Below are positions 3,472 to 53,520 of a stretch of DNA of 64,000 nt, one piece after another. Position numbers and translations under genes: made by a program. Location of the stretch: contig JAJCZQ010000017.1 in assembly GCA_029262335.1 (NCBI GenBank), forward strand, positions 4,033-68,032, given 5' to 3'. The notes beneath the pieces were generated by a model. The model saw only the letters and a program-made list of their open reading frames with translations. It was not told the DNA's origin and searched no databases. This DNA is from Deltaproteobacteria bacterium. GTDB taxonomy: Bacteria > Desulfobacterota_D > UBA1144 > Nemesobacterales > JAJCZQ01. Each line of letters starts with the position of its first letter. Position 1 is the stretch's first letter.

Positions 3472-4053
3472 TTGATCCGATACTATTTTGCTATGAGCCT
3501 GACAAATATTCTCAATCTTGTGGACAGTATAGGTAATTTACTTAGGTCTGAAGAGAAAAAATTCCTTCAGCCGCTGGGCCTTCAGCCTATTCACCTTCAT
3601 GTGCTTATGTATCTGTCCATGTGTAACAAATATAGTAATAATCCCGCAGCTTTAACTAAATATCTGGGTAACACCAAGGGTACTACTTCACAGAGTATTA
3701 ATGTACTTGAATCAAAGGGATACCTTGTTAAACAAAAGAGTAAGAAGGATAAAAGAATCGTTAAGCTTTATCTGACAGAACAGGCAACAGAGATCATAAA
3801 AAAACTTTCTTTTGAGGATTCTGAAGACTTTTTTAATGACAGGAGTATGGAAATAACAGAGAATGTATTAACAAATATCCTTAAATCACTACAGCTTTCA
3901 AACCAGAGTATGACCTTCGGTATATGTAAAACATGCGACTTTTTTATAGACGAGGGGGACGGGTTCAGATGCGGGTTGACTGAAGAAGTGCTGTTTGATT
4001 ATGAGATAGATCTTGTATGCCAGGAGCACGAGTCCGAGCTCCAGGATATCTAA
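3472..4053 (+). CDS. MarR-family-like transcriptional regulator with C-terminal Cys-cluster domain
   Basis: Winged-helix region (HLHVLMYL...SQSINVLESKGYLVKQKSKKDKRIVKLYLTE). C-terminal CKTCDFF...RCGL...VCQEHE. Confidence 0.6.
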   Translation: MIRYYFAMSLTNILNLVDSIGNLLRSEEKKFLQPLGLQPIHLHVLMYLSMCNKYSNNPAALTKYLGNTKGTTSQSINVLESKGYLVKQKSKKDKRIVKLYLTEQATEIIKKLSFEDSEDFFNDRSMEITENVLTNILKSLQLSNQSMTFGICKTCDFFIDEGDGFRCGLTEEVLFDYEIDLVCQEHESELQDI

Positions 4054-7845: not shown

Positions 7846-8847
7846 TTATGATGGATCGATGTCGAAAAAGTTGTCAGTAAAGAATGAATCAAATGAACCT
7901 CTTCCATTGCCGTTGTTAAGTCCTACATAGCCAAAAGCAGCATCTGTTTCTTCACCTATGTTCTCAATTGTTAATATAACTTCACCCTCAGGAATGATGT
8001 TGCCCGGGCAAAGAAGTTCCCCACCTTTACTGTTTGGAATAACGTTGTTGATACCATATTCATACCTTGCTACTGAAGCAGAGGAACGTTCAAATATAAA
8101 TCCACCCTGACTAGCTTGAGTCAGTATTTCCTCTATAAGTGGATTATTCTCATCTACACATGAAAAAACAACGTCACGGCATGAAAAAAGAACCTCGTTG
8201 TTATTGATAATATCAACATCTACAGCAACCCATGTACCAAGTACATTATCAAGGGTTGCTTCAAATATACCTTCACCAACAGAGTCTGTACTAAGAGCGA
8301 TTCCAAATACATCTGAAAGTACTACACCGCTTTCAGAGTTGTAATTAAAGTATGCAGTTGGAAATTGTTCATCAAAAGGGACTCCAACCGAATTGGTAAT
8401 TGCATTGGTCCTGTACTCATAACCAAGGTTGTCATTAATCCTGATATTTCCAATTAATGGCTGAAATATTTCCATGCCTTCATTTACAGGCACAGAAGCG
8501 ACAATTATACCATAGGCATCATCCGGAAGGACTACCCCTGAAGGATTAGTGTCATTTGTTAATATGTTTCTCAGGTTATAAATATGTGTGTCGTTTGGCG
8601 TATAAGCATCAAAAAAGTTGTTCTCGTTACAGAGATTAGCAACATTATAGATCTGTACATGTACTGTCTGACTTGATGAATCTACATTTGTAATCTGGAA
8701 GAAAGACTCCCTGTCCCTCAGGTCAAACGGAACAATTAAAAATATTCCCGCATTGTCTGTTTCCGGAACTATTCCAAAACCGCCGGAAAGAGTATTAGAG
8801 GCAGGAAAAATTAAGGTGATTAATAAGATTAATGTTAATGTTCTCAA
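7846..8847 (-). CDS. Secreted protein, novel paralogous family, member 1
   Basis: Signal peptide. Conserved blocks DLRDRESF, NLCNENNFFD, NDTHIYNLR, GYEYRTN, FSCRDVVFSCVDENNPLIEE, YEYGINNVIPNSKGGELLCPGN, GLNNGNGRGS. TTG start with GGAGG SD. Confidence 0.85.
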   Translation of the reverse strand: MRTLTLILLITLIFPASNTLSGGFGIVPETDNAGIFLIVPFDLRDRESFFQITNVDSSSQTVHVQIYNVANLCNENNFFDAYTPNDTHIYNLRNILTNDTNPSGVVLPDDAYGIIVASVPVNEGMEIFQPLIGNIRINDNLGYEYRTNAITNSVGVPFDEQFPTAYFNYNSESGVVLSDVFGIALSTDSVGEGIFEATLDNVLGTWVAVDVDIINNNEVLFSCRDVVFSCVDENNPLIEEILTQASQGGFIFERSSASVARYEYGINNVIPNSKGGELLCPGNIIPEGEVILTIENIGEETDAAFGYVGLNNGNGRGSFDSFFTDNFFDIDPS

Positions 8848-8973
8848 AATAAAATCCTCCTAAATATTAATTTTGCTTATTTTACAACATTTAAAGTATA
8901 AATACCAGCTTATAGTATATAAAAAAGTAAAGTTTATATATTTGATTTATAGAGATTAAAAGAATTGAGAAAT

Positions 8974-9012
8974 AAAAAAAGGGAGCAAAGAATAATTTCA
9001 ATGCTCCCCTTG
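8974..9012 (-). terminator. Family-B hairpin terminator, copy 2
   Basis: AAAAAAAGGGAGCA-aagaataatttcaa-TGCTCCCCTT, downstream of paralog 2. Confidence 0.75.
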
Positions 9013-9040
9013 ATTAGTGATCTAAGTTTATTTTTTGCTA

Positions 9041-10039
9041 TTACATTTCTTGAAGTATAAAACCATTTTGATAAAAGAATGAATCCATAGACCCTCTTCC
9101 ATTACCATTGTTTAAGCCTACATATCCAAAAAAAGCATCGGTATCATCGCCCTGATTTTCAATTGTTAGAATTACCTCTCCTTCAGGGATTGTATTACCT
9201 GGACAAAGGAGTTCTCCTCCCTTACTGTTTGGAATAACATTGTTTATACCATATTCATAACTTGCAACTGATGCAGAGGAACGTGTGGGAATACCTCCAT
9301 CACTGGCAAGTACAAGTATTTCCTCTATGAGCGGATTGTTTTCATCAACGCAGGAAAACACAACGTCACGGCATGAAAAAAGTACCTCGTTGTTATCGAC
9401 AATATCAACATCTACTGCAACGAATGTACCAAGCACATTATCAAGTGTAGCTTCTGCCTCACTGCCCTCTTCTTCACTTGCTGAAAGGGCGAATCCAAAA
9501 ACATCGGAAAGTACAACTCCACCCTCTGAATTATAGTTAAATGTTAATATTCCAGGTATCTCACTTTCAGGTAAACGGGCAGGGCTGCTTATAATATTGG
9601 ACCTGTATTCATAACCTGAATTATCTGTAATTCTGAAATTGCCGATTAGAGGAGTAGGGGGAATTTCATTAAATTCAACCCCAGCTGATACAAAAACTAT
9701 GCCGTAAGCATCATCGGGCAGCACAACTCCGGAAGGGTTTCCATCATTAGTAAGAATGTCTCTTAAATTATAAACATGTGTGTCGTTTGGTGTATAAACA
9801 TCAAAAAAGTTGTTTTCATTACACAGGTTTGCAACATTATAGATTTGAACATGTATTGTCTGGGAAGCAGAATCCACATTAGTTATCTGTAAAAAGGATT
9901 CTCTGTCTCTCAGGTCAAAAGGCGCAACTGATAAAAAAGACCCGGTGTCTGTTTCGCTTACAACACCTATTCCTCCTGCAATTGAATTGCCTGTAGGGAC
10001 AAACAGTGTTAATAATAAAAGTAAAATAATGGTTCTCAT
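9041..10039 (-). CDS. Secreted protein, novel paralogous family, member 2
   Basis: Same conserved blocks as member 1. Internal ATG at 10039 with GGAGG SD preferred over the 10102 extension. Confidence 0.85.
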   Translation of the reverse strand: MRTIILLLLLTLFVPTGNSIAGGIGVVSETDTGSFLSVAPFDLRDRESFLQITNVDSASQTIHVQIYNVANLCNENNFFDVYTPNDTHVYNLRDILTNDGNPSGVVLPDDAYGIVFVSAGVEFNEIPPTPLIGNFRITDNSGYEYRSNIISSPARLPESEIPGILTFNYNSEGGVVLSDVFGFALSASEEEGSEAEATLDNVLGTFVAVDVDIVDNNEVLFSCRDVVFSCVDENNPLIEEILVLASDGGIPTRSSASVASYEYGINNVIPNSKGGELLCPGNTIPEGEVILTIENQGDDTDAFFGYVGLNNGNGRGSMDSFFYQNGFILQEM

Positions 10040-10130
10040 AAATATCCTCCTAAAAATCAATCCGGTAAAAATAATCTTATTTTTTATATTGTTCAATAGC
10101 ACACATTATATATAAGGTGAATATTGTACA

Positions 10131-10168
10131 AAAAAAGGGAGCAAAGAATAAATTCCATACTCCCTTTC
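10131..10168 (-). terminator. Family-B hairpin terminator, copy 3
   Basis: AAAAAAAGGGAGCA-aagaataaattcca-TACTCCCTTT, one stem mismatch. Confidence 0.65.
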
Positions 10169-10184
10169 TTACTTATGATTTTTT

Positions 10185-11252
10185 TTAGAATTGCCCTATT
10201 TCTTCAGAAAAAATTAAAGCAGGGAAAAACATTGTATCCATTGAACCGCGTCCGTTACCGTTATTTAAACCAATATATCCGTAAAAACCTACAGTATTTT
10301 CTCCACGATTTTCAGGAGTAAGAACTACAACTCCTTCAGAAATTATATTACCGGGGCAAAGGAGTTCTCCTCCTTTACTGTTTGGTATAGCCTCATTAAT
10401 ACCGTATTCAAATCTTGCAACTGAAGCTGATGAACGTGCAAGGGTCTCACTACCTGCGAGTACAAGTATCTCTTCAATCAGGGGGTTGTTTTCATCAACG
10501 CAGGAAAATACAACGTCGCGGCATGAAAACAGGACTTCATTGTTATTAATTATATCCACATCGACTGCAACAAATGATTCAAGGACGTTGTCGAGAGTTG
10601 CTTCAAAAGTAAAAGTTTCATCACCTATGAAGTCATCATCATCATCGCCTATTGCAAACCTATCAGAACTTAATGCTATTCCGAAAACATCTGAAAGTAC
10701 AATTCCGGCCTCAGAGTTAAAATTAAAAGTATTAAAGAACTGTTCAATATTTATAGGTATTATTTGTCCGAAAAAACTCGGTGTGGAAGCAATATTGGTC
10801 CGGTATTCATAACCGGAACTATCTATCATCCTTATATTTCCAATTAGTGGTGTAGTTATGAATTCTGGGTCAATAACTAAAAATGGTATAGGTGCACTAA
10901 TAAACACTATTCCATATGCATCTTCAGGGAGTACTACACCAGAAGGGCTGCCGTCGTTGGTAAGAATGTCCCTTAGGTTGTAAACATGTGTGTCATTTGG
11001 TGTATAAAGGTCGAAAAAATTGTTTTCGTTACAAAGGTTTCCTACGTTATAGATCTGTATATGAAGGTTCTGGCTGGTTGAGTCTATATTAGTCAGCTGA
11101 ATATAAGACTCCCTGTCCCGCAGGTCAAAAGGAGCTGCCAATAGAAAGGACGAGTTGTCAGTCTCTGCCAGGCCAATTGGACCAAGCCCTGCAAAAGAGA
11201 TACCGGCAGGTGTGAAAAGTGTAATTAAAAGCAGTAAAGTTAAAATCCTCAT
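10185..11252 (-). CDS. Secreted protein, novel paralogous family, member 3
   Basis: Same conserved blocks. Poly-Asp variable loop (GDDDDDFIGDE). ATG with GGAGGA SD. Confidence 0.85.
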   Translation of the reverse strand: MRILTLLLLITLFTPAGISFAGLGPIGLAETDNSSFLLAAPFDLRDRESYIQLTNIDSTSQNLHIQIYNVGNLCNENNFFDLYTPNDTHVYNLRDILTNDGSPSGVVLPEDAYGIVFISAPIPFLVIDPEFITTPLIGNIRMIDSSGYEYRTNIASTPSFFGQIIPINIEQFFNTFNFNSEAGIVLSDVFGIALSSDRFAIGDDDDDFIGDETFTFEATLDNVLESFVAVDVDIINNNEVLFSCRDVVFSCVDENNPLIEEILVLAGSETLARSSASVARFEYGINEAIPNSKGGELLCPGNIISEGVVVLTPENRGENTVGFYGYIGLNNGNGRGSMDTMFFPALIFSEEIGQF

Positions 11253-12156: not shown

Positions 12157-12190
12157 CCCTCCCCCTGGAATGGGGAGGGAATTATTGTTT
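12157..12190 (+). terminator. Rho-independent terminator
   Basis: CCCTCCCC-ctggaat-GGGGAGGG followed by a T-rich tail. Confidence 0.65.
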
Positions 12191-12196
12191 TAGGAT

Positions 12197-12360
12197 TTTA
12201 TTATGTCATTCCCGACAATGATCGGGAATCCAGAATAAAAGTCATTGCGAGGAGATCGAAGCAATCTCTTCGTTAAACCGTAGATTCTCACGGTCATTTC
12301 ATTCCCTCAGAATGACTGCTTGTATGTCATTGCGAGGAATGTAGTGACGCGGCAATCCCC
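12197..12360. repeat. Mosaic of short interspersed repeat modules
   Basis: GTCATTCCCGAcaatgaTCGGGAATCCAGAAT and GTCATTGCGAGGA..GCAATC units also occur at 50.70, 51.6 and 53.3-53.5 kb. Confidence 0.7.
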
Positions 12361-12361
12361 C

Positions 12362-12610
12362 GCAAAGAACTTATAGAAAAAACAAACTGATATAATTTGC
12401 AATACTTCATTTTCTTTATCTTGATATAAAGAAAACGAAGCAAAAGAAAGATCAAGGCTGGAAATTTCATACACTAAAAAAACAAATTAAAATCTAAAGC
12501 GTAAAATCCCGCCACAACCCCTTTACGCTTCTTAACGATTTAAATTCATTTTTTCTTAACGTTATTCATTGCAGGCCGTTTATAAAAATTCAAAAAAATT
12601 AATTCCTACA
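12362..12610. repeat. Family-A interspersed structured repeat, copy A1 (5'-truncated)
   Basis: Near-identical to 45.69-45.87 kb and 53.07-53.26 kb. Contains hairpins TTTCTTTATcttgATAAAGAAA and AGCGTAAA-N16-TTTACGCT, and ends ...CATTGCAGGCCGTT. Confidence 0.8.
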
Positions 12611-14254: not shown

Positions 14255-14562
14255 AAATTTTAGTATATTTTTGTTTAGCCGTGATTTTTGGTTCTTTGTA
14301 TCTAGACAAAGAACATAGAGAAATAAACAAACTTACTTATTAGCAATACTTCATTTTCTTTATCTTGATATAAAACTACGGGAAAGCAATAGTACAACTA
14401 CTGAGCTGTATTTAAATTTTTATTTAGAAGAAAGTATTGTACCGAGATAGTTGAAGCTAAACCTAAATATAGATTTAAACTAGCTTCAATGCATGTTCGG
14501 TTTTCTTACCATAGCTATATTCATTGCAGGCCGTATAAAAAATTTAAAAAATTAAATTCCTC
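14255..14562. repeat. Family-A interspersed structured repeat, copy A2 (divergent internal segment)
   Basis: Shares the 5' module (TTTAGTATATTTTTGTTTAGCC...GGTTCTTTGTatctagACAAAGAAC...CTTCATTTTCTTTATCTTGATATAAA) and the 3' end (CATTGCAGGCCGTATAAAAAATT) with A1 and A3. Confidence 0.7.
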
Positions 14563-30772: not shown

Positions 30773-33733
30773 ATGAACCTGATACAATTACCAATACGAA
30801 ATTTATTACTAACTTTATTTACGCTAATCTTCTTTTTAACACTATTTACAATTAACTCTAACTCACAAAGCTGTAATGAAATGAATATACCAATGTGTAC
30901 TGACACCCAGATTGAAAATGATTGTAGTGGGTGTAAAAGTGCAGATCAACAGTACTGCTGTACGGATACAATGGGTTGTAACACTGATTTGACTACAATC
31001 TGTAATCCTCCATGTAATGAAAGTAACATTTGTCAGATGCCTGAAGAATGCACAGGAACCAGCATCCCCGATTGTGCACAGGACTTAACTGATTGTAGTG
31101 TATGTGGTGAAAATGATTTTTGTTGCCCATCCTCAACTGGCGGCACTGCTGCCTGTGGTACAACATTCGATGGTTTATGTAATGGCAATACCTGTACTGA
31201 CCAAAATATATGTAAATATGTGCCGCTTCCCCCTGTACTTGAAAGAGAATTTACATTTATAAATAATTGTAGTGAAACAGTCTGGGTAGGAGCTCTAACC
31301 AACCAGTTTGAAGGCGGTTTCGAACTCACCGGATCCTGCACTATGGATTCTGACTGCATGAATGCCTGTCCTACAATTACAGGAATAAGCAACTGTTCTT
31401 CCTCCTGTTTAAACGGATCATGCACGGTTGAATTTACCGGTAATATTAATACAGCTACTGCAGACAGTATATCAGGAAGGTTCTGGCCAATGACCGGATG
31501 CAGTTTTAATGGTTCTCAGGAATGCGAGGGAACTGACAGGTGCTGTGATACGGGGAGCTGTACTATATCCGGCGGAGGTTTTGGACTTCAGTGCAACAGC
31601 TCCGGGGATTCACCTAACACTGTCGCAGAGTTTACACTTACTTCAGGGGCCAACAATGATTTTTATGATATTAGTTTAATAGACGGATATAACGTGCCGG
31701 TTGAGATGAAGCCTGCCGGAACTGCCGCAGACGCACCGACTGGTTTTGACACTTCTTACTGGTGTGCTAACCCGGGAGGTGTTGAATCAACAATAATTCC
31801 GGAGGTCTGTAACTGGGACACTACTTTCGGTACTGACTGTGCCGGTAACCCTGATTTCAGGACGGTAGGATCACTTCAGACCTGTACTGAGGATTCAGAC
31901 TGTGGTTCAGGAACGTGCAATGTGAGTTCCGGTGTATGCGAATGTAAGGATGATACTGACTGTAATCAAACAGGGAATATATGCGGGGTTCCTGACCCGG
32001 GCTTTACGGGTTTTAAAGCCTGCGGGACTCAGACAGGTTGTACAACGGCAAAAGATATATGCGGCTTGTATTTCGGACAGGGTGAAAAAGGTGATACCTG
32101 CGGACAGGATGAACTTTGCTCAAGTGGTACCTGCCTTGCGCCCAACACTCCGAAAACCTGCATGATGGACAGTGACTGCAATGCTGTTTGTATGAACGGT
32201 ACATGTGAAAATAATAGCAATATAAGCTGTACGCTAGATAGTGAATGCACAGCCAATTGTGTAGATGGGCAATGCTGGAAACCATGCACATTGACAAGTG
32301 ATTGTAATGGTGAGGAAGTATGTGCCGAGGGAGTTTGCCAGTGTATACCTAATGTCTGCAACTCTATGGGTATGTGTACTAATGACGGAGATTCCTGTAC
32401 AACAACTGCAGATTGTACACAGACCTGTGGTGGTTTTTGTACCGAGGGGCCTGCAGATTTTCTTGATTGCAACGAACTTGTAACGACTAATAAACAGGTT
32501 GCATGCTCTGTAGATACGGATTGTCCTGCATTAGTAGGCCTTCCTGCATGTACAACGAATTCCGACTGTCCGGAGAACACTACATGTGAAGATTTTGGTG
32601 CGATGCCGGCTCCGGGACAACCCGAAATTGCAAAAGTATGCAGGCTCACATGTGATACAAATACAGGTTTCTGTTCAGGTCCCACATGTACTGACAACAG
32701 TGACTGTACAGGGATGAGTAACGGTGTAAGCCTGAGCGGAACATTTATGCAGTGTGATACGAGCACCAGTCCAGGCAGCTGCGTTGCAACAAATACAAGC
32801 CTGTATGAAGGTGCCGGTTTAACAGGACAGTCCTGCTATATAAATTATTATGGGGGTTTTGCACCGTCATTATCCTGTAATGGATGCCCGACAGCTTGTG
32901 ATGATCCTCCATGTAATCCGGCACAGGCAGCTAATTCCAAATGGCCTTCACCTGCTACCAATGAGAGTTGTAAAAATACTAATTCGGACTGGGTAAGTGT
33001 TGCGGAACCATTAGTTGAAGGATTCAAGGAAGCATGCCCTTCAGCTTACAGCTTCCCGTTTGACGACCCAACAAGTACTTTCCAGTGTACAAATGATACG
33101 CAGACAAACAGCATGGGGTATGAAATTACTTTTTGTCCCGCGGGAACACCAATACCGCCACCGCCTCCACCTCCGGTAATTGATGATGATACAACGGAAC
33201 CTCCAATAAAAATTAACCCGGGTAGTAACGGGCCGTTTGTTTCGATCGAATTTGATCCCGAACTTGATGGGGGAGGCCAGATTTTTGTAGGCCTTCCGCC
33301 GGGAGTCCTTGCGGAGTTTGCACAGCTGAACCCCGTTGTAGGAGACTGTGAAATAGTAAGCCAGACTGCAAGGGTAACGGACCCAGATGTAATATGCAGG
33401 GTAGATGATTTTCCCGAAAACCTTGATATGCTCATAGAGTTCTGCAAAGAAGCAGATCAGCAGGGTGTTGTTCAGGCCGCTGTTGAGGTACTGAGTGACG
33501 GAATACCCGAAGAAGAATTCAGTAATTTCCTCGACATACTTCTTGATGAGCTGGATTTATGCGCTAGTAATGATGACGATGCAGGTGATGATGGAAGCGG
33601 TGACATTACAACTGGAGATGATACTGGTACCGGTTGTTCGCTGACTCCGGCAGGCAGTGAATCAAACGCCTTGCCTCTACTGCTGTTAATCCCGGCATTT
33701 ATAATTATCAGAAGATTAAGAAATAAAAAGTAG
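30773..33733 (+). CDS. Secreted cysteine-rich thaumatin (PR-5)-like domain protein with C-terminal sorting-signal-like tail
   Basis: Thaumatin blocks: FTFINNCSETVWVGA, GRFWPMTGCSF...CDTGSC...VAEFTL...DFYDISLIDGYNVPVEM, FKEACPSAYSFPFDDPTSTFQC...YEITFCP. Many CTxDSDC modules inserted within domain II. PPPPPPPP linker. C-terminal GCSLTPAG + hydrophobic stretch + RRLRNKK. Confidence 0.8.
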   Translation: MNLIQLPIRNLLLTLFTLIFFLTLFTINSNSQSCNEMNIPMCTDTQIENDCSGCKSADQQYCCTDTMGCNTDLTTICNPPCNESNICQMPEECTGTSIPDCAQDLTDCSVCGENDFCCPSSTGGTAACGTTFDGLCNGNTCTDQNICKYVPLPPVLEREFTFINNCSETVWVGALTNQFEGGFELTGSCTMDSDCMNACPTITGISNCSSSCLNGSCTVEFTGNINTATADSISGRFWPMTGCSFNGSQECEGTDRCCDTGSCTISGGGFGLQCNSSGDSPNTVAEFTLTSGANNDFYDISLIDGYNVPVEMKPAGTAADAPTGFDTSYWCANPGGVESTIIPEVCNWDTTFGTDCAGNPDFRTVGSLQTCTEDSDCGSGTCNVSSGVCECKDDTDCNQTGNICGVPDPGFTGFKACGTQTGCTTAKDICGLYFGQGEKGDTCGQDELCSSGTCLAPNTPKTCMMDSDCNAVCMNGTCENNSNISCTLDSECTANCVDGQCWKPCTLTSDCNGEEVCAEGVCQCIPNVCNSMGMCTNDGDSCTTTADCTQTCGGFCTEGPADFLDCNELVTTNKQVACSVDTDCPALVGLPACTTNSDCPENTTCEDFGAMPAPGQPEIAKVCRLTCDTNTGFCSGPTCTDNSDCTGMSNGVSLSGTFMQCDTSTSPGSCVATNTSLYEGAGLTGQSCYINYYGGFAPSLSCNGCPTACDDPPCNPAQAANSKWPSPATNESCKNTNSDWVSVAEPLVEGFKEACPSAYSFPFDDPTSTFQCTNDTQTNSMGYEITFCPAGTPIPPPPPPPVIDDDTTEPPIKINPGSNGPFVSIEFDPELDGGGQIFVGLPPGVLAEFAQLNPVVGDCEIVSQTARVTDPDVICRVDDFPENLDMLIEFCKEADQQGVVQAAVEVLSDGIPEEEFSNFLDILLDELDLCASNDDDAGDDGSGDITTGDDTGTGCSLTPAGSESNALPLLLLIPAFIIIRRLRNKK

Positions 33734-34354: not shown

Positions 34355-35458
34355 ATGGCCAGCATTATTAACGATTTTAAAATTGTTGTTTTTATCAGTT
34401 TTATATTAATCGCAATTACATTTTTTAACTGCGGGGGCGATAGTATAGATTCATCCACAAACAGCAGTTCACCGGAACTCAGCAGAATTGACGGACGTGT
34501 TACTGAGGTGCTGGCATTAAAAATAGATGAAAAACAGTCACATTTTGCTGAAATTAAAAATACATTGAGTTTTACCGTGACAGCTACCGCCCAGGGGTCC
34601 TTAGTGGATGGAATTTTAGTTATGGCTATTGGGAATGATTCAAACGGTGAAAAGCTTTTGGACCAGGATACAACAGCCTTTGATGGCAGTTTCAGCCTGT
34701 TTGTCCCGGCCGGGGAAGTTGCTCTGCAGTTTGAAGTTGATAACGAAGTATATGAAAAAGTATTGCAGGTCCCTGAGGAAACCACTGTTGAAATACTGGT
34801 CAGCATAGATAAAGAAGATAAAGTAAACCCGGTTGAAATATCCGGTCCGGATGAAGTTGGCGAAGAGGAAAATACGGAAGATACTATTGATGAAACGGAA
34901 GATAATAGTGAAGACATGAATAATGAAAATGATGTTCCTGAGCCGGAAGATACTAATGACATGCAGGATGAAGATGAGCAGACAGGTAATGATGACGATG
35001 ACAATCAGGGTGATTTTGATCCACCATCTTCGGGAGAAGGGAATATAACTTCGGCAGAATTAGTCTCTTCGGTAAACTCAAGACGGGCCCAGGGGGCAAA
35101 TTGCGGATCCGAAGGGTCATTCGGGCCACAGGGGCCGCTTGGAATAAGTAACTCTCTTGGTGAAGCGGCACTCAGGCATTCAGTAGATATGTCAGAAAAC
35201 AATTTTTTTGAACACCGGGGTTCTGACGGATCAAGCCCTATAGACAGAATGAGGGATGCGGGGTTTGCCGGAAACGGCTGGGGTGAGAATATCTCACGTG
35301 CAAGCTATGAAAGATCAGCCGAGGAAGTAGTAGCAGGCTGGATGACAAGTGACGGGCACTGTTCAAACATTATGACCCCGGGTTTTAATGTCCTGGGTTC
35401 TGCAAAAGCAGCTAACAGCAACTGGGAAAACTGGACACTTAATCTCGGTACTGAGTAA
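34355..35458 (+). CDS. CAP (SCP/PR-1-like, YkwD-type) domain lipoprotein with acidic linker
   Basis: Lipobox FFNCGG. Long D/E-rich linker. C-terminal CAP region (ELVSSVNSRRAQGANCGSEG...EHRGSDGSSPIDRMRDAGF...GENI...AGWMTSDGHCSNIM). Confidence 0.75.
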   Translation: MASIINDFKIVVFISFILIAITFFNCGGDSIDSSTNSSSPELSRIDGRVTEVLALKIDEKQSHFAEIKNTLSFTVTATAQGSLVDGILVMAIGNDSNGEKLLDQDTTAFDGSFSLFVPAGEVALQFEVDNEVYEKVLQVPEETTVEILVSIDKEDKVNPVEISGPDEVGEEENTEDTIDETEDNSEDMNNENDVPEPEDTNDMQDEDEQTGNDDDDNQGDFDPPSSGEGNITSAELVSSVNSRRAQGANCGSEGSFGPQGPLGISNSLGEAALRHSVDMSENNFFEHRGSDGSSPIDRMRDAGFAGNGWGENISRASYERSAEEVVAGWMTSDGHCSNIMTPGFNVLGSAKAANSNWENWTLNLGTE

Positions 35459-35566: not shown

Positions 35567-36556
35567 ATGAGAGTATCATCTTTTTTAATAGCAGTTTCAC
35601 TTTGTTTAAGTTTTACAGTAATTTCAATTCAGGAAAGTTCTTCCCAGGCACTACCTATTGCAGAGTCTGACGCTGCAGGGCCACAGTTGATTGGTTTTTT
35701 TGACCTTAGGGAGAGAGAATCTTTCATGCAGTTAACTAATACCGATAGTGCAGTACAAACAGTACATATTCAGCTTTTCAATGTTAATGACAACTGCAAC
35801 GAAAACAATTTCTTTGATGACTATACCGCTAACGATACACATATATATAATCTGAGAGACATTCAGACTAACGATGGAAACCCACCGGGAGTAGTACTCC
35901 CAGCTGATGCTTATGGAATATTTGTTGCAACTTATGTGAATAAACCAAATGTTATGCAGCCCCCTCTTGCATTAGTAGGAAACCTAAGAGTTATTGACAA
36001 CAGCGGCTACGAATACAGGACAAATCTGCTTAGCTCCCTTGCCTCTGAAATTCAATCAATTTTTGACCCGGTAACCTTCAACTTTAATTCTGAAGCCGGT
36101 GTAACACTTTCAGATGTGATAGGTATTCCACTTGACGATTTAGGTGAATTCGAACTACCTGCTGAAGTGTTTGCAGCTGACGTTACAAATATATGGTTAA
36201 GCTTTGATGTAAATATATTGGATAATATTGAAAATATATTTTCATGCAGGGATATAACATTTGCCTGTGTCAACGATCAGAATCCTTTATTAGAAGAATT
36301 GTTGGCTGCATCACAAACCAGTGTTGCGAGCTTTGAATACGGTATCAACAATGCAATACCTCACAGCAAGGGTGGAGAACTTCTTTGTCCTGGTAATACA
36401 ATATCCGAAGGGGTTGTTACACTAACAAATATTGACGTTGGATTTGAATCACAACCTACTTACTTTATTTTTGTAGGTCTTAACAATGGAAACGGCAGGG
36501 GTAGTCTGGATGTAATCTGGAACGATCAGATACCTGATATGATGGGTGGTGGTTAA
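35567..36556 (+). CDS. Secreted protein, novel paralogous family, member 4
   Basis: FFDLRERESFMQLTN, NDNCNENNFFD, NDTHIYNLRDIQTNDGNPPGVVLP, GYEYRTN, FSCRDITFACVNDQNPLLEE, FEYGINNAIPHSKGGELLCPGN, GLNNGNGRGS. Confidence 0.85.
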   Translation: MRVSSFLIAVSLCLSFTVISIQESSSQALPIAESDAAGPQLIGFFDLRERESFMQLTNTDSAVQTVHIQLFNVNDNCNENNFFDDYTANDTHIYNLRDIQTNDGNPPGVVLPADAYGIFVATYVNKPNVMQPPLALVGNLRVIDNSGYEYRTNLLSSLASEIQSIFDPVTFNFNSEAGVTLSDVIGIPLDDLGEFELPAEVFAADVTNIWLSFDVNILDNIENIFSCRDITFACVNDQNPLLEELLAASQTSVASFEYGINNAIPHSKGGELLCPGNTISEGVVTLTNIDVGFESQPTYFIFVGLNNGNGRGSLDVIWNDQIPDMMGGG

Positions 36557-45446: not shown

Positions 45447-45596
45447 CATTTCATGCTAAAAACCGGCACTAAGTTAATAGTGCTAAAGAACTATGATAAA
45501 TTAAGAATTTAAAAACTGTTTTTGATCGACATGCAATGAATAGCGTTAAGAATGGCTTTAGGGGTGGGGTGGAATTAAAGACATTTAGTTAAAATA

Positions 45597-45912
45597 TTTA
45601 ATTTTTAGTATATTTTTGTTTAGCCTTGAATTTTGGTTCTTTGTTTCAAGACAAAGAACATAGAAAGATAAATAAAGTTACTTAATAGCTATTCTTCATT
45701 TTCTTTATCTTGATATAAAGAAAACGAAGCAAAAGAAAGATCAAGGCTGGCGATTCATTAACTAAAAAAACAAAATAAAATCTAAAGCGTAAAATCCTGC
45801 CACAACCCCTTTACGCTTCTTACCGATTTTATTTCATTTTTTCTTCACGTTATTCATCGCAGGCCGTTTTATAAAATATTGTGTCATCTCGAACAAATGT
45901 GAGAGATCTATT
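45597..45912. repeat. Family-A interspersed structured repeat, copy A3 (most complete)
   Basis: Contains all modules: GTTCTTTGTttcaagACAAAGAAC hairpin, TTTCTTTATcttgATATAAAGAAA hairpin, AGCGTAAA-N16-TTTACGCT hairpin, ...CATCGCAGGCCGTTTT. Tail GTCATCTCGAACAAATGTGAGAGATCT. Confidence 0.8.
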
Positions 45913-49637: not shown

Positions 49638-50645
49638 ATGAAAAATATAAAAATAATTTCGGTGTTTTTACTTCTTTTGGCTATTACATTTTTTCCGGCC
49701 CAGTCAAAGGCTGGTACTGCTACCCCGTTTAATGCATCCGGGACTGATAGCTCTGCTTTTGACAGTTTAATCTATTTTTTTGACCTGCGAGACAGAGAAA
49801 CATTTATCCAGCTTACATATTTTGAAGAAGTCATTCAGGGGATTTCTGCAAATATACACATTCAGATATTTGATGTTTCAAACAACTGTAACGAAAATAA
49901 TTTCTTTGATGTCTATACACCCAACGATACGCATGTCTACAATATGAGGGATATCCAGACTAACGACGGTAGCCCTTCAGGAGTAGTGCTTCCGGAAGGG
50001 GCTTACGGGATTGTTACAATTATATTTGAACCGGTTATTAATGCTCAGGTCGGTATTGGTATGATCGGAAACATGAGGGTGCTTGATAATAATGGCTACG
50101 AATACAGAACAAATGCTCAGTATTTTTCCAGGGCGGGCGGACCGGGTAGTGGCTCATCACCCGAGGATTTTTATTCCTTTAACTTTAACCAGGAAGCCGG
50201 TGTAACCTTATCTGATGTAATCGGTATTACATTGTCTTCTACTGATACCGAAAATAGCTTTGAATATCTTGCAGATCCTTTAACAGCATTTAATACTTTC
50301 GATATTGATATAATTGACAACAATGAAGTTCCTTTTTCCTGTAGAGACATAATTTTTGCATGTGTCAACCAGGATAGTGTTCTACTCGAACCACTTCTGG
50401 AATTTGCCGGAACTGCAAGTGTGGCGGATTTTGAATATGGAATTAACAATGTAATCCCTCACAGTAAAGGTGGAGAACTTCTCTGTCCTGGCAATGTGAC
50501 AGGTGAAGGTTTTGTTATCTTAAGGCCTGAACTACAGCCAACTACGGAAAGCTTTCGTAGTTTTTATGGTTTTGTTGGATTAAATAACGGCAATGGCAGA
50601 GGCAGCCTTGATTCCTTTTGGCAGTTTTTTGTTCAGCCTACATAA
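49638..50645 (+). CDS. Secreted protein, novel paralogous family, member 5
   Basis: FFDLRDRETFIQLT, NNCNENNFFD, NDTHVYNMRDIQTNDGSPSGVVLP, GYEYRTN, FSCRDIIFACVNQD, FEYGINNVIPHSKGGELLCPGN, GLNNGNGRGS. AAAGGAG SD. Confidence 0.85.
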   Translation: MKNIKIISVFLLLLAITFFPAQSKAGTATPFNASGTDSSAFDSLIYFFDLRDRETFIQLTYFEEVIQGISANIHIQIFDVSNNCNENNFFDVYTPNDTHVYNMRDIQTNDGSPSGVVLPEGAYGIVTIIFEPVINAQVGIGMIGNMRVLDNNGYEYRTNAQYFSRAGGPGSGSSPEDFYSFNFNQEAGVTLSDVIGITLSSTDTENSFEYLADPLTAFNTFDIDIIDNNEVPFSCRDIIFACVNQDSVLLEPLLEFAGTASVADFEYGINNVIPHSKGGELLCPGNVTGEGFVILRPELQPTTESFRSFYGFVGLNNGNGRGSLDSFWQFFVQPT

Positions 50646-50950: not shown

Positions 50951-51265
50951 ATGTTTATAATAAAAGAATATCTTGATAATAAAGGTAATAGCCCTTTTCA
51001 GTCATGGTTTAATAAATTAAGTGTCCATGCTGCATCAAAAGTAACTATTGCATTAACCAGGTTGGAAAATGGTAATTTGTCCAATGTTAAATCACTAAAA
51101 GGCGGAGTTTTTGAAATAAAGATTAATTATGGCCCTGGTTTTAGAATTTATTATGGTCTTGAGGGAAGAAAAATAATTATAATGCTTTGTGGCGGGACTA
51201 AAAAAAATCAGCAAAAAGATATAAATAAAGCTAAAGATTTATGGAAGATATATAAAGGATTATAA
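50951..51265 (+). CDS. Addiction-module killer protein (HigB/RelE-like, COG3657 type)
   Basis: FQSWFNKL, GNLSNVKSLKGGVFEIKINYGPGFRIYYGLEG..IIMLCGGTKKNQQKDI. Immediately followed by the cognate antidote gene. Confidence 0.8.
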   Translation: MFIIKEYLDNKGNSPFQSWFNKLSVHAASKVTIALTRLENGNLSNVKSLKGGVFEIKINYGPGFRIYYGLEGRKIIIMLCGGTKKNQQKDINKAKDLWKIYKGL

Positions 51266-51266
51266 A

Positions 51267-51581
51267 ATGCCAACCAGAGATTATAAAGAAACAATTCGTG
51301 AGAGAGTAATTAATGACCCGCCCTTCAAAAAGGTCTTATTAGAAGAAGCACTCGTATGCCTTTTGTCCGGTGATGTTGATACAGGTAAAGCAGTATTAAA
51401 AGATTATATAAAGGCAACAACCGGATTTGAAAATCTTTCAAAGAATATTGATAAAAAGCCAGAAAGTTTAATACGAATGCTGGGGCCAAAAGGTAATCCA
51501 ACAGCAAATAATCTTTTTAAAATTATTTCTCATATTCAAAAGAAGGAAAAGTTGAAATTTAAAGTTAGTGTTAGTGACTAA
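51267..51581 (+). CDS. Addiction-module antidote protein (HTH, COG3636 type)
   Basis: Start 1 nt after the toxin stop. HTH region LSKNIDKKPESLIRMLGPKGNPTANNLFKII. Confidence 0.75.
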   Translation: MPTRDYKETIRERVINDPPFKKVLLEEALVCLLSGDVDTGKAVLKDYIKATTGFENLSKNIDKKPESLIRMLGPKGNPTANNLFKIISHIQKKEKLKFKVSVSD

Positions 51582-53063: not shown

Positions 53064-53292
53064 GAATAATTACCTTCATTTTCTTTATCTTGATACAAAG
53101 AAAACGAAGCAAAAAAAAGATCAAGGCTAGGCGATTCATTAACTAAAAAAACAAAATAAAATCTAAAGCGTAAAATCCCGCCACATCCCCTTTAACGCTT
53201 CTTTACGATTTTATTTCATTTTTTCTTAACGTTATTCATCGCAGGCCGTTATGAAAAGAAAGATCTCTCACATTTGTTCGAGATGACAAAGG
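53064..53292. repeat. Family-A interspersed structured repeat, copy A4
   Basis: Over 90% identical to the A1/A3 core. Its tail AGATCTCTCACATTTGTTCGAGATGAC is the reverse complement of the A3 tail. Confidence 0.8.
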
Positions 53293-53520
53293 AACTGGAT
53301 TCCGGATCAATCTTCTGTCAGATTGGATCTCTTTCCGAAATAAAAATTTCAATAGAGTTAGTTAGTAGTATTGATTACTTTCCATAGTTCTAGTCGGGAA
53401 TGACAAAGAGGGATTGCCGCGCTTGTAGACCGTAGAACTACTGGGAAACATTACCTAATTATAAAATTGAAATTACTAATTTAACATTTGTCACTGAATG
53501 CTACAGTTAGGCTCGCAATG
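53293..53520. repeat. Mosaic short-repeat cluster
   Basis: TCGGGAATGACAAAGAGGGATTGCCGCG and CTCGCAATGAC modules, the reverse complement of GTCATTGCGAG. Confidence 0.55.

Follow-up and report, generated by a model that had tools for sequence, protein, structure and literature searches.

The question raised by this locus is what kind of genetic entity a hairpin-rich repeat can be when it recurs, four times and always on the same strand, among the ordinary genes of a bacterial chromosome. The window, by which we mean the whole 64,000-nucleotide stretch that was analysed, is core chromosome (about 40% G+C, with genes for SMC, SecA, FolD, TrpE, phosphoglucomutase and CofD and a SurA-like gene), and the original prediction, made from the letters alone, had proposed that the repeat, here family A, was either a small RNA or a MITE-like element. 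Family A has no earlier description, although repeats of its kind are well known in bacteria. On balance we regard it as probably a palindromic interspersed repeat, non-autonomous and without genes, of marine Candidatus Dadabacteria, MITE-like in its layout and REPIN-like in its behaviour, that would be spread by an enzyme acting in trans.

The four copies that had been predicted in the window (A1 to A4), all on the plus strand, were recovered both by pairwise alignment and by a repeat finder. An invariant 22-mer, CTTCATTTTCTTTATCTTGATA, occurs exactly four times in the window, on the plus strand and in all four copies, when no occurrence is expected by chance, and the conserved 3' end, TTCATYGCAGGCCGT, has four exact occurrences against 0.18 expected. 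Most of the internal landmarks were also where they had been placed, namely the first palindrome (GTTCTTTGT-N6-ACAAAGAAC) in A2 and A3, the third palindrome (AGCGTAAA-N16-TTTACGCT) in A1, A3 and A4, the 5' truncation of A1 inside the first palindrome (cut at 12363) and the replaced internal segment of A2, which is a nested insert at 14376-14518; the first palindrome is missing from A4. The second palindrome, TTTCTTTAT-CTTGAT-ATAAAGAAA, exists as well, with a spacer of 6 nt rather than the 4 nt originally given. The extent of the element, in contrast, had to be redrawn: the copies are real, and the centre and the right arm had been captured, but the left boundaries were too narrow, the terminal inverted arms had been missed and the tail lies outside the element. 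A3 starts at the junction (45457-45468), or else at the arm (45528), and ends at 45867.

To define the element, 64 arms were used, which come from 291 kb of MAG and metagenome sequence of related Candidatus Dadabacteria. A full family A element is about 360 bp long (about 350-430 bp) and is an inverted dimer of a half unit of ~165 nt, whose L-type and R-type versions form long imperfect inverted arms that can be aligned over ~130 nt, i.e. terminal inverted repeats are present. Read inwards, the half unit starts with an AT-rich flank (..TTTTAAAAC) and a terminus of 15-20 nt (GGCCTGCAATGAAT in the R type, GGCATTACAAAA in the L type), the arm itself beginning with the conserved terminal GGC(A/C)T.., followed by the box ACGTTAAGAAAA (the first CGTTAAGAA box) and by a 106-nt hairpin made of an 18-bp outer stem, the second CGTTAAGAA box as an internal loop, and a 7-8-bp inner stem enclosing an invariant 16-nt G-rich loop (AGGGGTTGTGGNGGGAT). 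After the loop come TTTAG, the 3' side of the outer stem, TTTTTAG, about 12 nt and then AGCC(G/T)TGAT, and the arm foot, A4...U5, is invariant at each arm's end. Innermost lies a 24-bp palindrome, TTCTTTRT-N6-AYAAAGAA, called P1 in the left half and P2 in the right half; the two are homologous in inverted orientation, P2 lying on the opposite strand, and the homology extends to their loops (TTCTTTRT-WTCWAG-AYAAAGAA). The flanks are inverted-symmetric as well, with ..AAAC abutting GGC at one end and GCC abutting GTTT.. at the other. Boxes and loops are invariant over 50-64 arms, and the termini are also fixed. Copies measure 176-566 bp and contain no ORF; a mini-ORF at the R-type terminus (MNNVKKK, then a stop) does not occur in L-type arms and was taken as coincidental. 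A possible closing stem, AGCCKTGA/TCAAGGCT, was likewise rejected, as it lacks covariation and merely represents homologous sequence at the inner ends of both arms.

A covariance model of the arm, R1, finds four arms in the window, and both ends are retained only in A3, the other three copies being truncated. The copies and their parts are as follows:

12363-12579, plus strand: copy A1, the right half plus half of P1
12363-12370, 12405-12440, 12472-12577 and 12565-12579: within A1, the P1 remnant, P2, the right arm ('sense' on the minus strand) and the terminus
12472-12577, minus strand: R1 match, A1 right arm, 114.6 bits
14255-14534, plus strand: copy A2, with left-arm remnant (14255-14284), P1 (14290-14314) and the 5' half of P2 (14349-14375)
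45457-45468, plus strand: ancestral left junction of A3, in which TAAAAACC abuts GGCA, a remnant of an L-type terminus, 11 nt past the DUF1318 stop codon
45469-45527, no strand assigned: 59 nt, specific to the window, that replace the outer portion of the A3 left arm, from alignment with L058 and L061
45528-45610, plus strand: A3 left arm (R1 match, shortened, 38.1 bits, E 9e-6), with the terminus-like GACATGCAATGAAT, one CGTTAAGAA box and the inner hairpin with the G-rich loop GGGGTGGGGTGGAAT
45635-45659, plus strand: P1 palindrome of A3, GGTTCTTTGT-TTCAAG-ACAAAGAAC
45694-45729, plus strand: P2 palindrome of A3, CTTCATTTTCTTTAT-CTTGAT-ATAAAGAAAACGAAG, inverted homologue of P1
45760-45867, minus strand: A3 right arm, the 106-nt hairpin plus the terminus GGCCTGCGATGAAT, from R1 and covariation
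45760-45865, minus strand: R1 match, A3 right arm, 109.4 bits
53074-53249, plus strand: copy A4, right half only, with P2 (53074-53109), right arm (53141-53247, 'sense' on the minus strand) and terminus (53235-53249)
53141-53247, minus strand: R1 match, A4 right arm, 107.2 bits

The left junction of A3, TAG-CA-TAAAAACC followed directly by GGCATTAC, is common to the orthologous loci L058 and L061. Its left arm has lost the 5' half of the outer stem, while its right arm has the 18-bp outer stem, an internal loop CGGTAAGAA/TTTAG, the inner stem GCGTAAA/TTTACGC and the minus-strand loop GGGGTTGTGGCAGGAT. The left part of A1 is replaced by hairpins of the GTCAT type (12205-12360, see below), and in A2 an unrelated 143-nt repeat, the nested insert already mentioned, stands in place of the right-arm hairpin, the right terminus (14520-14534) being kept; the same type of insert is found inside complete elements in L024, L033 and L044. 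The truncation point of A4 is shared by its orthologues in L050 and L021. The gene contexts of the window copies are of four kinds. A terminator scan also picked up a hairpin (GCACTATTAACTTAGTGC, then CGGTTTTTAG) at 45466-45483 on the minus strand, overlapping the 59-nt replacement; it is oriented to stop minus-strand transcripts exiting A3, and was not seen at the other copies.

The stems of the arms covary. In 50 MAFFT-aligned arms 91.3% of the cells are paired, compared with 66.6% in shuffles, and 18 of 25 pairs have changed on both sides; in all 64 arms, aligned with the model, the figures are 91.9% and 20 of 25, in a sample that includes related subtypes. As a control, the partner was slid by 1-3 columns in the 64 arms, which left 36-59% paired. 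RNAalifold recovers the same arm fold unguided, and there are at least four sequence types of the outer stem, each self-complementary. Compensatory changes had been expected for the predicted stems: they are found in the third one, and in the longer outer stem that had not been seen, but P1 and P2 are nearly invariant, their sole covarying position being position 7 (G:C, A:T or T:A). The arms also show a wobble bias on the outside-to-inside strand, with 68 G.U cells versus 11 A.C cells, although wobble cells are often inherited together, so that the independent events are fewer, roughly 10 versus 4. An excess of G.U over A.C on this strand indicates that it is the strand folded in both arms, and the better folding of the minus strand of A3 (z = -4.6) agrees with the wobble bias.

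Strongly covarying stems around invariant loops, a 68:11 ratio as for folding of a single strand, the minus-strand fold of A3 and a conservation exceeding that of the flanking genes (see below) would all suit multi-copy structured sRNA genes, each half unit or entire element having its own promoter and its RNA acting by means of the conserved 16-nt loop. This loop, rich in G on one strand and in C on the other, might, for example, pair with ribosome-binding sites or bind a protein, and the terminator-like hairpin at 45466-45483 does lie just downstream of A3 on the minus strand. We nevertheless consider this explanation distinctly unlikely. No conserved promoter (sigma-70-like) or intrinsic terminator was detected in or beside the copies by a simple consensus scan, the hairpin being specific to A3, and a search of the window against Rfam returned nothing at the gathering threshold and only chance-level hairpin matches in E-value mode. 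Because the 'sense' strands of an element's two arms are opposite ones, no single transcript can contain both arms in the favoured fold; three of the four window copies, and many others, are truncated, at differing points; and deletion derivatives retain the termini rather than any single RNA domain. The small RNA half of the original prediction is therefore not supported.

The other half, a MITE-like element, has fared better. Family A has terminal inverted arms, lacks an ORF, is present in many copies in unrelated intergenic contexts of several Dadabacteria genomes, and has given rise to truncated, nested and deletion derivatives, the last of which keep both termini. Such internal-deletion derivatives were observed at L033:4897-4972 (76 bp) and L018:3053-3228 (176 bp), and also in L057, in L058 and in A2 of the window, one size being ~250 bp; the retention of both termini is what one would expect if propagation needs both ends. 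Copies that are ~98% identical are found in different flanks within one metagenome, and we infer that family A has transposed.

The target-site duplications and the cognate transposase that the original prediction had suggested looking for did not turn up. There is no target-site duplication at any tested length in 25 complete copies, near-identical young ones included, and no clean pair of filled and empty sites at the loci orthologous to A1/A2 (L009), A3 (L057-L062) and A4 (L021, L047, L050), where every related genome has either some form of the element or a rearranged region and no precise insertion boundary is readable. By Pfam, none of 30 ORFs in the window is a transposase, the ORFs being only housekeeping genes and genes of no known function; a crude scan for HUH/Y motifs found no candidate among 571 ORFs of window-related Dadabacteria DNA; and no terminus pair encloses an ORF, as it would in an autonomous copy, in the related loci examined.

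For a small repeat with terminal inverted arms and the conserved terminal GGC(A/C)T.., one may also consider a classical MITE of a DDE transposase, that is, an internally deleted IS that moves by cut-and-paste through its terminal inverted repeats and whose hairpins are incidental palindromy. The size below 600 bp without an ORF, the many copies, the AT-rich flanks and the deletion derivatives that keep both ends would all be in line with such an origin. However, the 25 complete copies lack the direct duplication even where they are near-identical and young, incidental palindromy leaves the 20 of 25 compensatory pairs and the wobble strand bias unexplained, and no parent IS with such ends was present in the related Dadabacteria loci examined. 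We regard this reading, too, as distinctly unlikely. For the preferred reading, a MITE-like repeat mobilised in trans, the hairpins, their strand bias and the missing target-site duplication speak more for a RAYT/HUH-like enzyme that recognises hairpins than for a DDE transposase. Such an enzyme, encoded elsewhere, would have spread the element by reading its termini together with the arm as folded on the outside-to-inside strand.

Resident copies appear to be remodelled after they arrive. Mosaic recombination between copies is frequent, and in one complete copy, L024:1140-1578, the P1-P2 centre is flipped with respect to the arms, an outcome that one would expect if the inverted arm ends (AGCCKTGAT/ATCAAGGCT) had recombined. 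Recombination between arms may have produced centre inversions, arm swaps and deletions, and nested insertion of two other small repeat families would have reshaped resident copies further.

Despite this remodelling, elements persist at the same sites over long evolutionary distances. At the A3 site the same junction, directly past the DUF1318 stop codon, is found in three lineages (the window, L058 and L061), and the DUF2779 proteins of the other two are 86% and 67% identical to that of the window. The A3 element of the window is 87.8% identical to that of L061, versus 84.1% and 71.1% for the DNA of the flanking genes, and A4 is 87.9% identical to its L050 orthologue, where adjacent coding DNA is 80% and adjacent intergenic DNA 69% identical. 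Such conservation above the flanking genes could reflect a host function rather than selfish spread. The paralogues A3 and A4 are 95.9% identical, above the orthologues (86.5% and 90.1%), as would result from tight constraint or else from concerted evolution by gene conversion or replacement. Compensated stems are in part lineage-specific and common to all copies of one genome, a pattern that suggests concerted evolution no less than selection in place. Structural turnover is fast all the same: L057, in which a neighbouring protein is 98% identical, carries a differently built copy at the A3 site, and arm types differ between orthologous sites.

Retention at orthologous sites with identity above that of the flanking genes, together with frequent mosaic recombination, almost invariant P stems in which position 7 alone covaries, and boxes and loops that do not vary over the 50-64 arms, could also be accounted for by a cis-acting DNA module of the host. 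Here P1/P2 (TTCTTTRT-N6-AYAAAGAA), the CGTTAAGAA boxes and the TTTTTAG boxes would be sites for a dimeric DNA-binding or nucleoid-associated protein, and copies would have been duplicated by recombination, not transposition. Yet a site read as duplex needs neither covarying stems nor G.T tolerance on one strand only, and truncated copies exist that lack one or both palindromes. Moreover, family A occupies convergent, divergent and tandem intergenic contexts, with unrelated neighbours and no gene in common, and the survival of both termini in deletion derivatives fits a need for ends. We therefore think a host DNA module rather unlikely.

Position relative to genes may bear on what the repeat does once it is in place. 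Genes read into 33 arms and away from 22, an excess of 3'-adjacent genes that is weak and includes orthologous, non-independent loci, and many arms lie 11-50 nt past a stop codon. A transcript entering from the flanking gene, from either side, would read the arm in its 'sense', favoured fold, and the arms probably double as bidirectional 3'-end hairpins (terminators or mRNA stabilisers). This is a guess consistent with the data; a role of this kind would partly account for the fact that, at orthologous sites, the copies have diverged less than the genes beside them. A more far-reaching idea, possible though unlikely in our judgement, is that the half unit is a dedicated structured RNA or single-stranded DNA ligand, in which the 16-nt G-rich loop, the CGUUAAGAA internal loop and the termini are carried on freely covarying stems and bound by a putative Dadabacteria protein, the population being kept at fixed sites by selection or by enzyme-driven homogenisation. 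If so, family A would represent a new large-format REPIN-like partnership of replicator and host, or a new protein-bound 3'-UTR element, and not decaying transposon debris.

The family is by no means restricted to the window. A scan of species-representative genomes with the 22-mer gave five copies in the MAG Candidatus Dadabacteria CSMAG_3085, several of them at contig ends, and one partial copy in a related single-cell genome; a metagenome scan added ~37 further copies judged real, the marine contigs that carry them reaching 1.2 Mb in length, and copies are also present in GCA_905148435.1 and in several metagenomes. A blastn search of a plasmid collection gave no family A match and the terminus pattern had no matches in viral contigs; three viral-contig matches to a 21-mer of P2 were dismissed as chance hits in unrelated AT-rich DNA. 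A literature search returned nothing on Dadabacteria repeats.

Several known kinds of repeat resemble family A in part, bacterial MITEs and REPINs (see below) being the nearest. The Correia/NEMIS elements of Neisseria and the ERIC/IRU elements of enterobacteria are bacterial MITEs, small (100-400 bp), gene-less and intergenic, with terminal inverted repeats, the whole element being foldable into a long hairpin; they have size variants that arose by internal deletion or insertion, and are co-transcribed with neighbouring genes, with effects on the mRNA. Family A shares with them its small size, intergenic position, absence of genes, terminal inverted repeats and size variants due to internal deletion or insertion. 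Correia elements, however, have a TA duplication and terminal inverted repeats of 26 bp, whereas family A has no duplication, and its ~130-bp arms fold on themselves, not with each other, with stems that covary. BIMEs and the pneumococcal BOX elements are modular mosaics of several small motif types that often lie just past stop codons; here, too, arms, P palindromes, GTCAT hairpins and the ..CCATAGTTCTA repeat (see below) are combined in variable order and orientation, often past stop codons, although the modules of family A differ in sequence and are much larger.

In the ends of IS200/IS605 elements and their miniature derivatives (PATEs) one finds subterminal hairpins that are presumably read as single-stranded DNA, no target-site duplication and no requirement for a duplex repeat at the terminus, all of which recall family A. 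Their hairpins, however, are on the same strand at both ends and they have no inverted arms, whereas R1 matches the left arm of family A on the plus strand and the right arms on the minus strand, i.e. the arms are inverted copies that are 'sense' on opposite strands, and a miniature IS200/IS605 derivative was accordingly rejected. Integron attC sites were rejected as well, since the base of the arm stem is A4/T4 and then TAG, without GTTRRRY, and the copies are dispersed among housekeeping genes. More generally, omegaRNA (TnpB/IscB), bridge RNA, retrons, group II introns and attC do not apply: no cognate gene lies next to the copies, the motifs that define those systems are absent, and family A is laid out symmetrically, with inverted halves.

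In behaviour family A comes close to REPINs, which are REP doublets that RAYT tyrosine/HUH transposases mobilise (Bertels & Rainey, PMC3116915, PMC3337134), and for whose persistence see PMC8049555 and bioRxiv 10.1101/2021.07.10.451892. Like REPINs, family A consists of two hairpin units inverted around a spacer, each arm folding on itself; it has no ORF and no target-site duplication, is intergenic, occurs in many copies and varies in its stems in a structure-preserving manner; and it persists vertically over long times at orthologous sites, its copies evolving as a population. The format, in contrast, is very different, as the unit of family A is a 106-nt two-stem hairpin with fixed loops whereas a REP has ~20-25 nt, so that the arms are four to five times the length of a REP unit. 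In addition, the centre of family A has two extra conserved palindromes, there is no GTAG-type head (the arms start with GGC(A/C)T and have CGTTAAGAA boxes), the neighbouring GTCAT hairpins being a better fit in this respect, and no RAYT gene for family A emerged from the crude motif scan of 571 ORFs. Family A, for which 64 arms have been aligned, covariation is strong and copies are retained at orthologous sites, offers a well-defined case in which to study long-lived repeat populations beyond the Proteobacteria; its partner enzyme, once found, would tell whether a repeat of so different a format can persist in the manner of REPINs. There is also a practical side: Dadabacteria are uncultured, family A, the GTCAT hairpins and the ..CCATAGTTCTA repeat break MAG assemblies at contig ends, and family A marks rearrangement hot spots between closely related strains.

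Finally, the 27-nt tail next to A3 had been predicted to be repeated exactly, in the opposite orientation, next to A4, which is the case, and had been interpreted as an invertible or recombining terminal segment, which is not supported. The tail is a member of a separate family of short REP-like hairpins, not an end of family A. In L059 it is found without family A, it is absent beside the A4 orthologue in L050, and it is missing from L057, a 98%-identical strain. This family has a conserved GTCAT head and a variable self-complementary stem, examples being GTCATTCCCGAC-AATG-ATCGGGAATCC and GTCATCCTGAA...TTCAGGATGAC; its members often lie 12-16 nt outside family A termini, in either orientation, and in other loci flank both ends. 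In the window they are found as follows:

45883-45909, plus strand: the 27-nt tail, a GTCAT-type REP-like hairpin outside family A
53261-53287, minus strand: second copy of the tail, inverted; an indel relative to L050
12205-12360, 50711-50721, 53393-53404 and 53512-53522: other GTCAT hairpins

Two further small repeats nest in or beside family A, in the window (14376-14518 and 53330-53392) and in L010, L012, L023, L024, L033, L044 and L062. One is the A2-type insert, with the core AAACCTAAATATAGATTTAAAC, and the other is a repeat of ~85 nt that ends in ..CCATAGTTCTA and has the core CGAAATAAAAATTTCAATA; both tend to land in or beside the P2 palindrome. A GC-rich terminator-like hairpin, CCCTCCCCCTGGAATGGGGAGGG, accompanies the repeat clusters at 12157-12179 of the window and at about 3750-3790 of the syntenic L009.

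Some genes of the window are also worth recording. Five paralogous genes of 329-355 aa without a Pfam match are located at 7846-11252 (three in tandem, minus strand), 35567-36556 and 49638-50645; each of the tandem paralogues is followed by a conserved hairpin, AAAAAGGGAGCAAAGAATAATTTCAATGCTCCCTTT (repeat family D8), and L021 has an additional paralogue, flanked by two family A copies, at a place where the window lacks one. The 596-aa protein encoded at 47629-49419 matches, along its whole length and unusually for a bacterium, the animal haem peroxidase family (E 1e-159); its gene is present in the 98%-identical strain L057 and is not at this position in L061. Two adjoining ORFs of 104 aa at 50951-51581 are likely a toxin-antitoxin pair, judging from the Gp49 (HigB-like toxin) domain in the L057 and L061 orthologues of the first. 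A 986-aa protein (30773-33733) has a thaumatin domain and a 367-aa protein (34355-35458) a CAP (cysteine-rich secretory protein) domain, both of them eukaryote-like secreted-protein domains in a marine bacterium.
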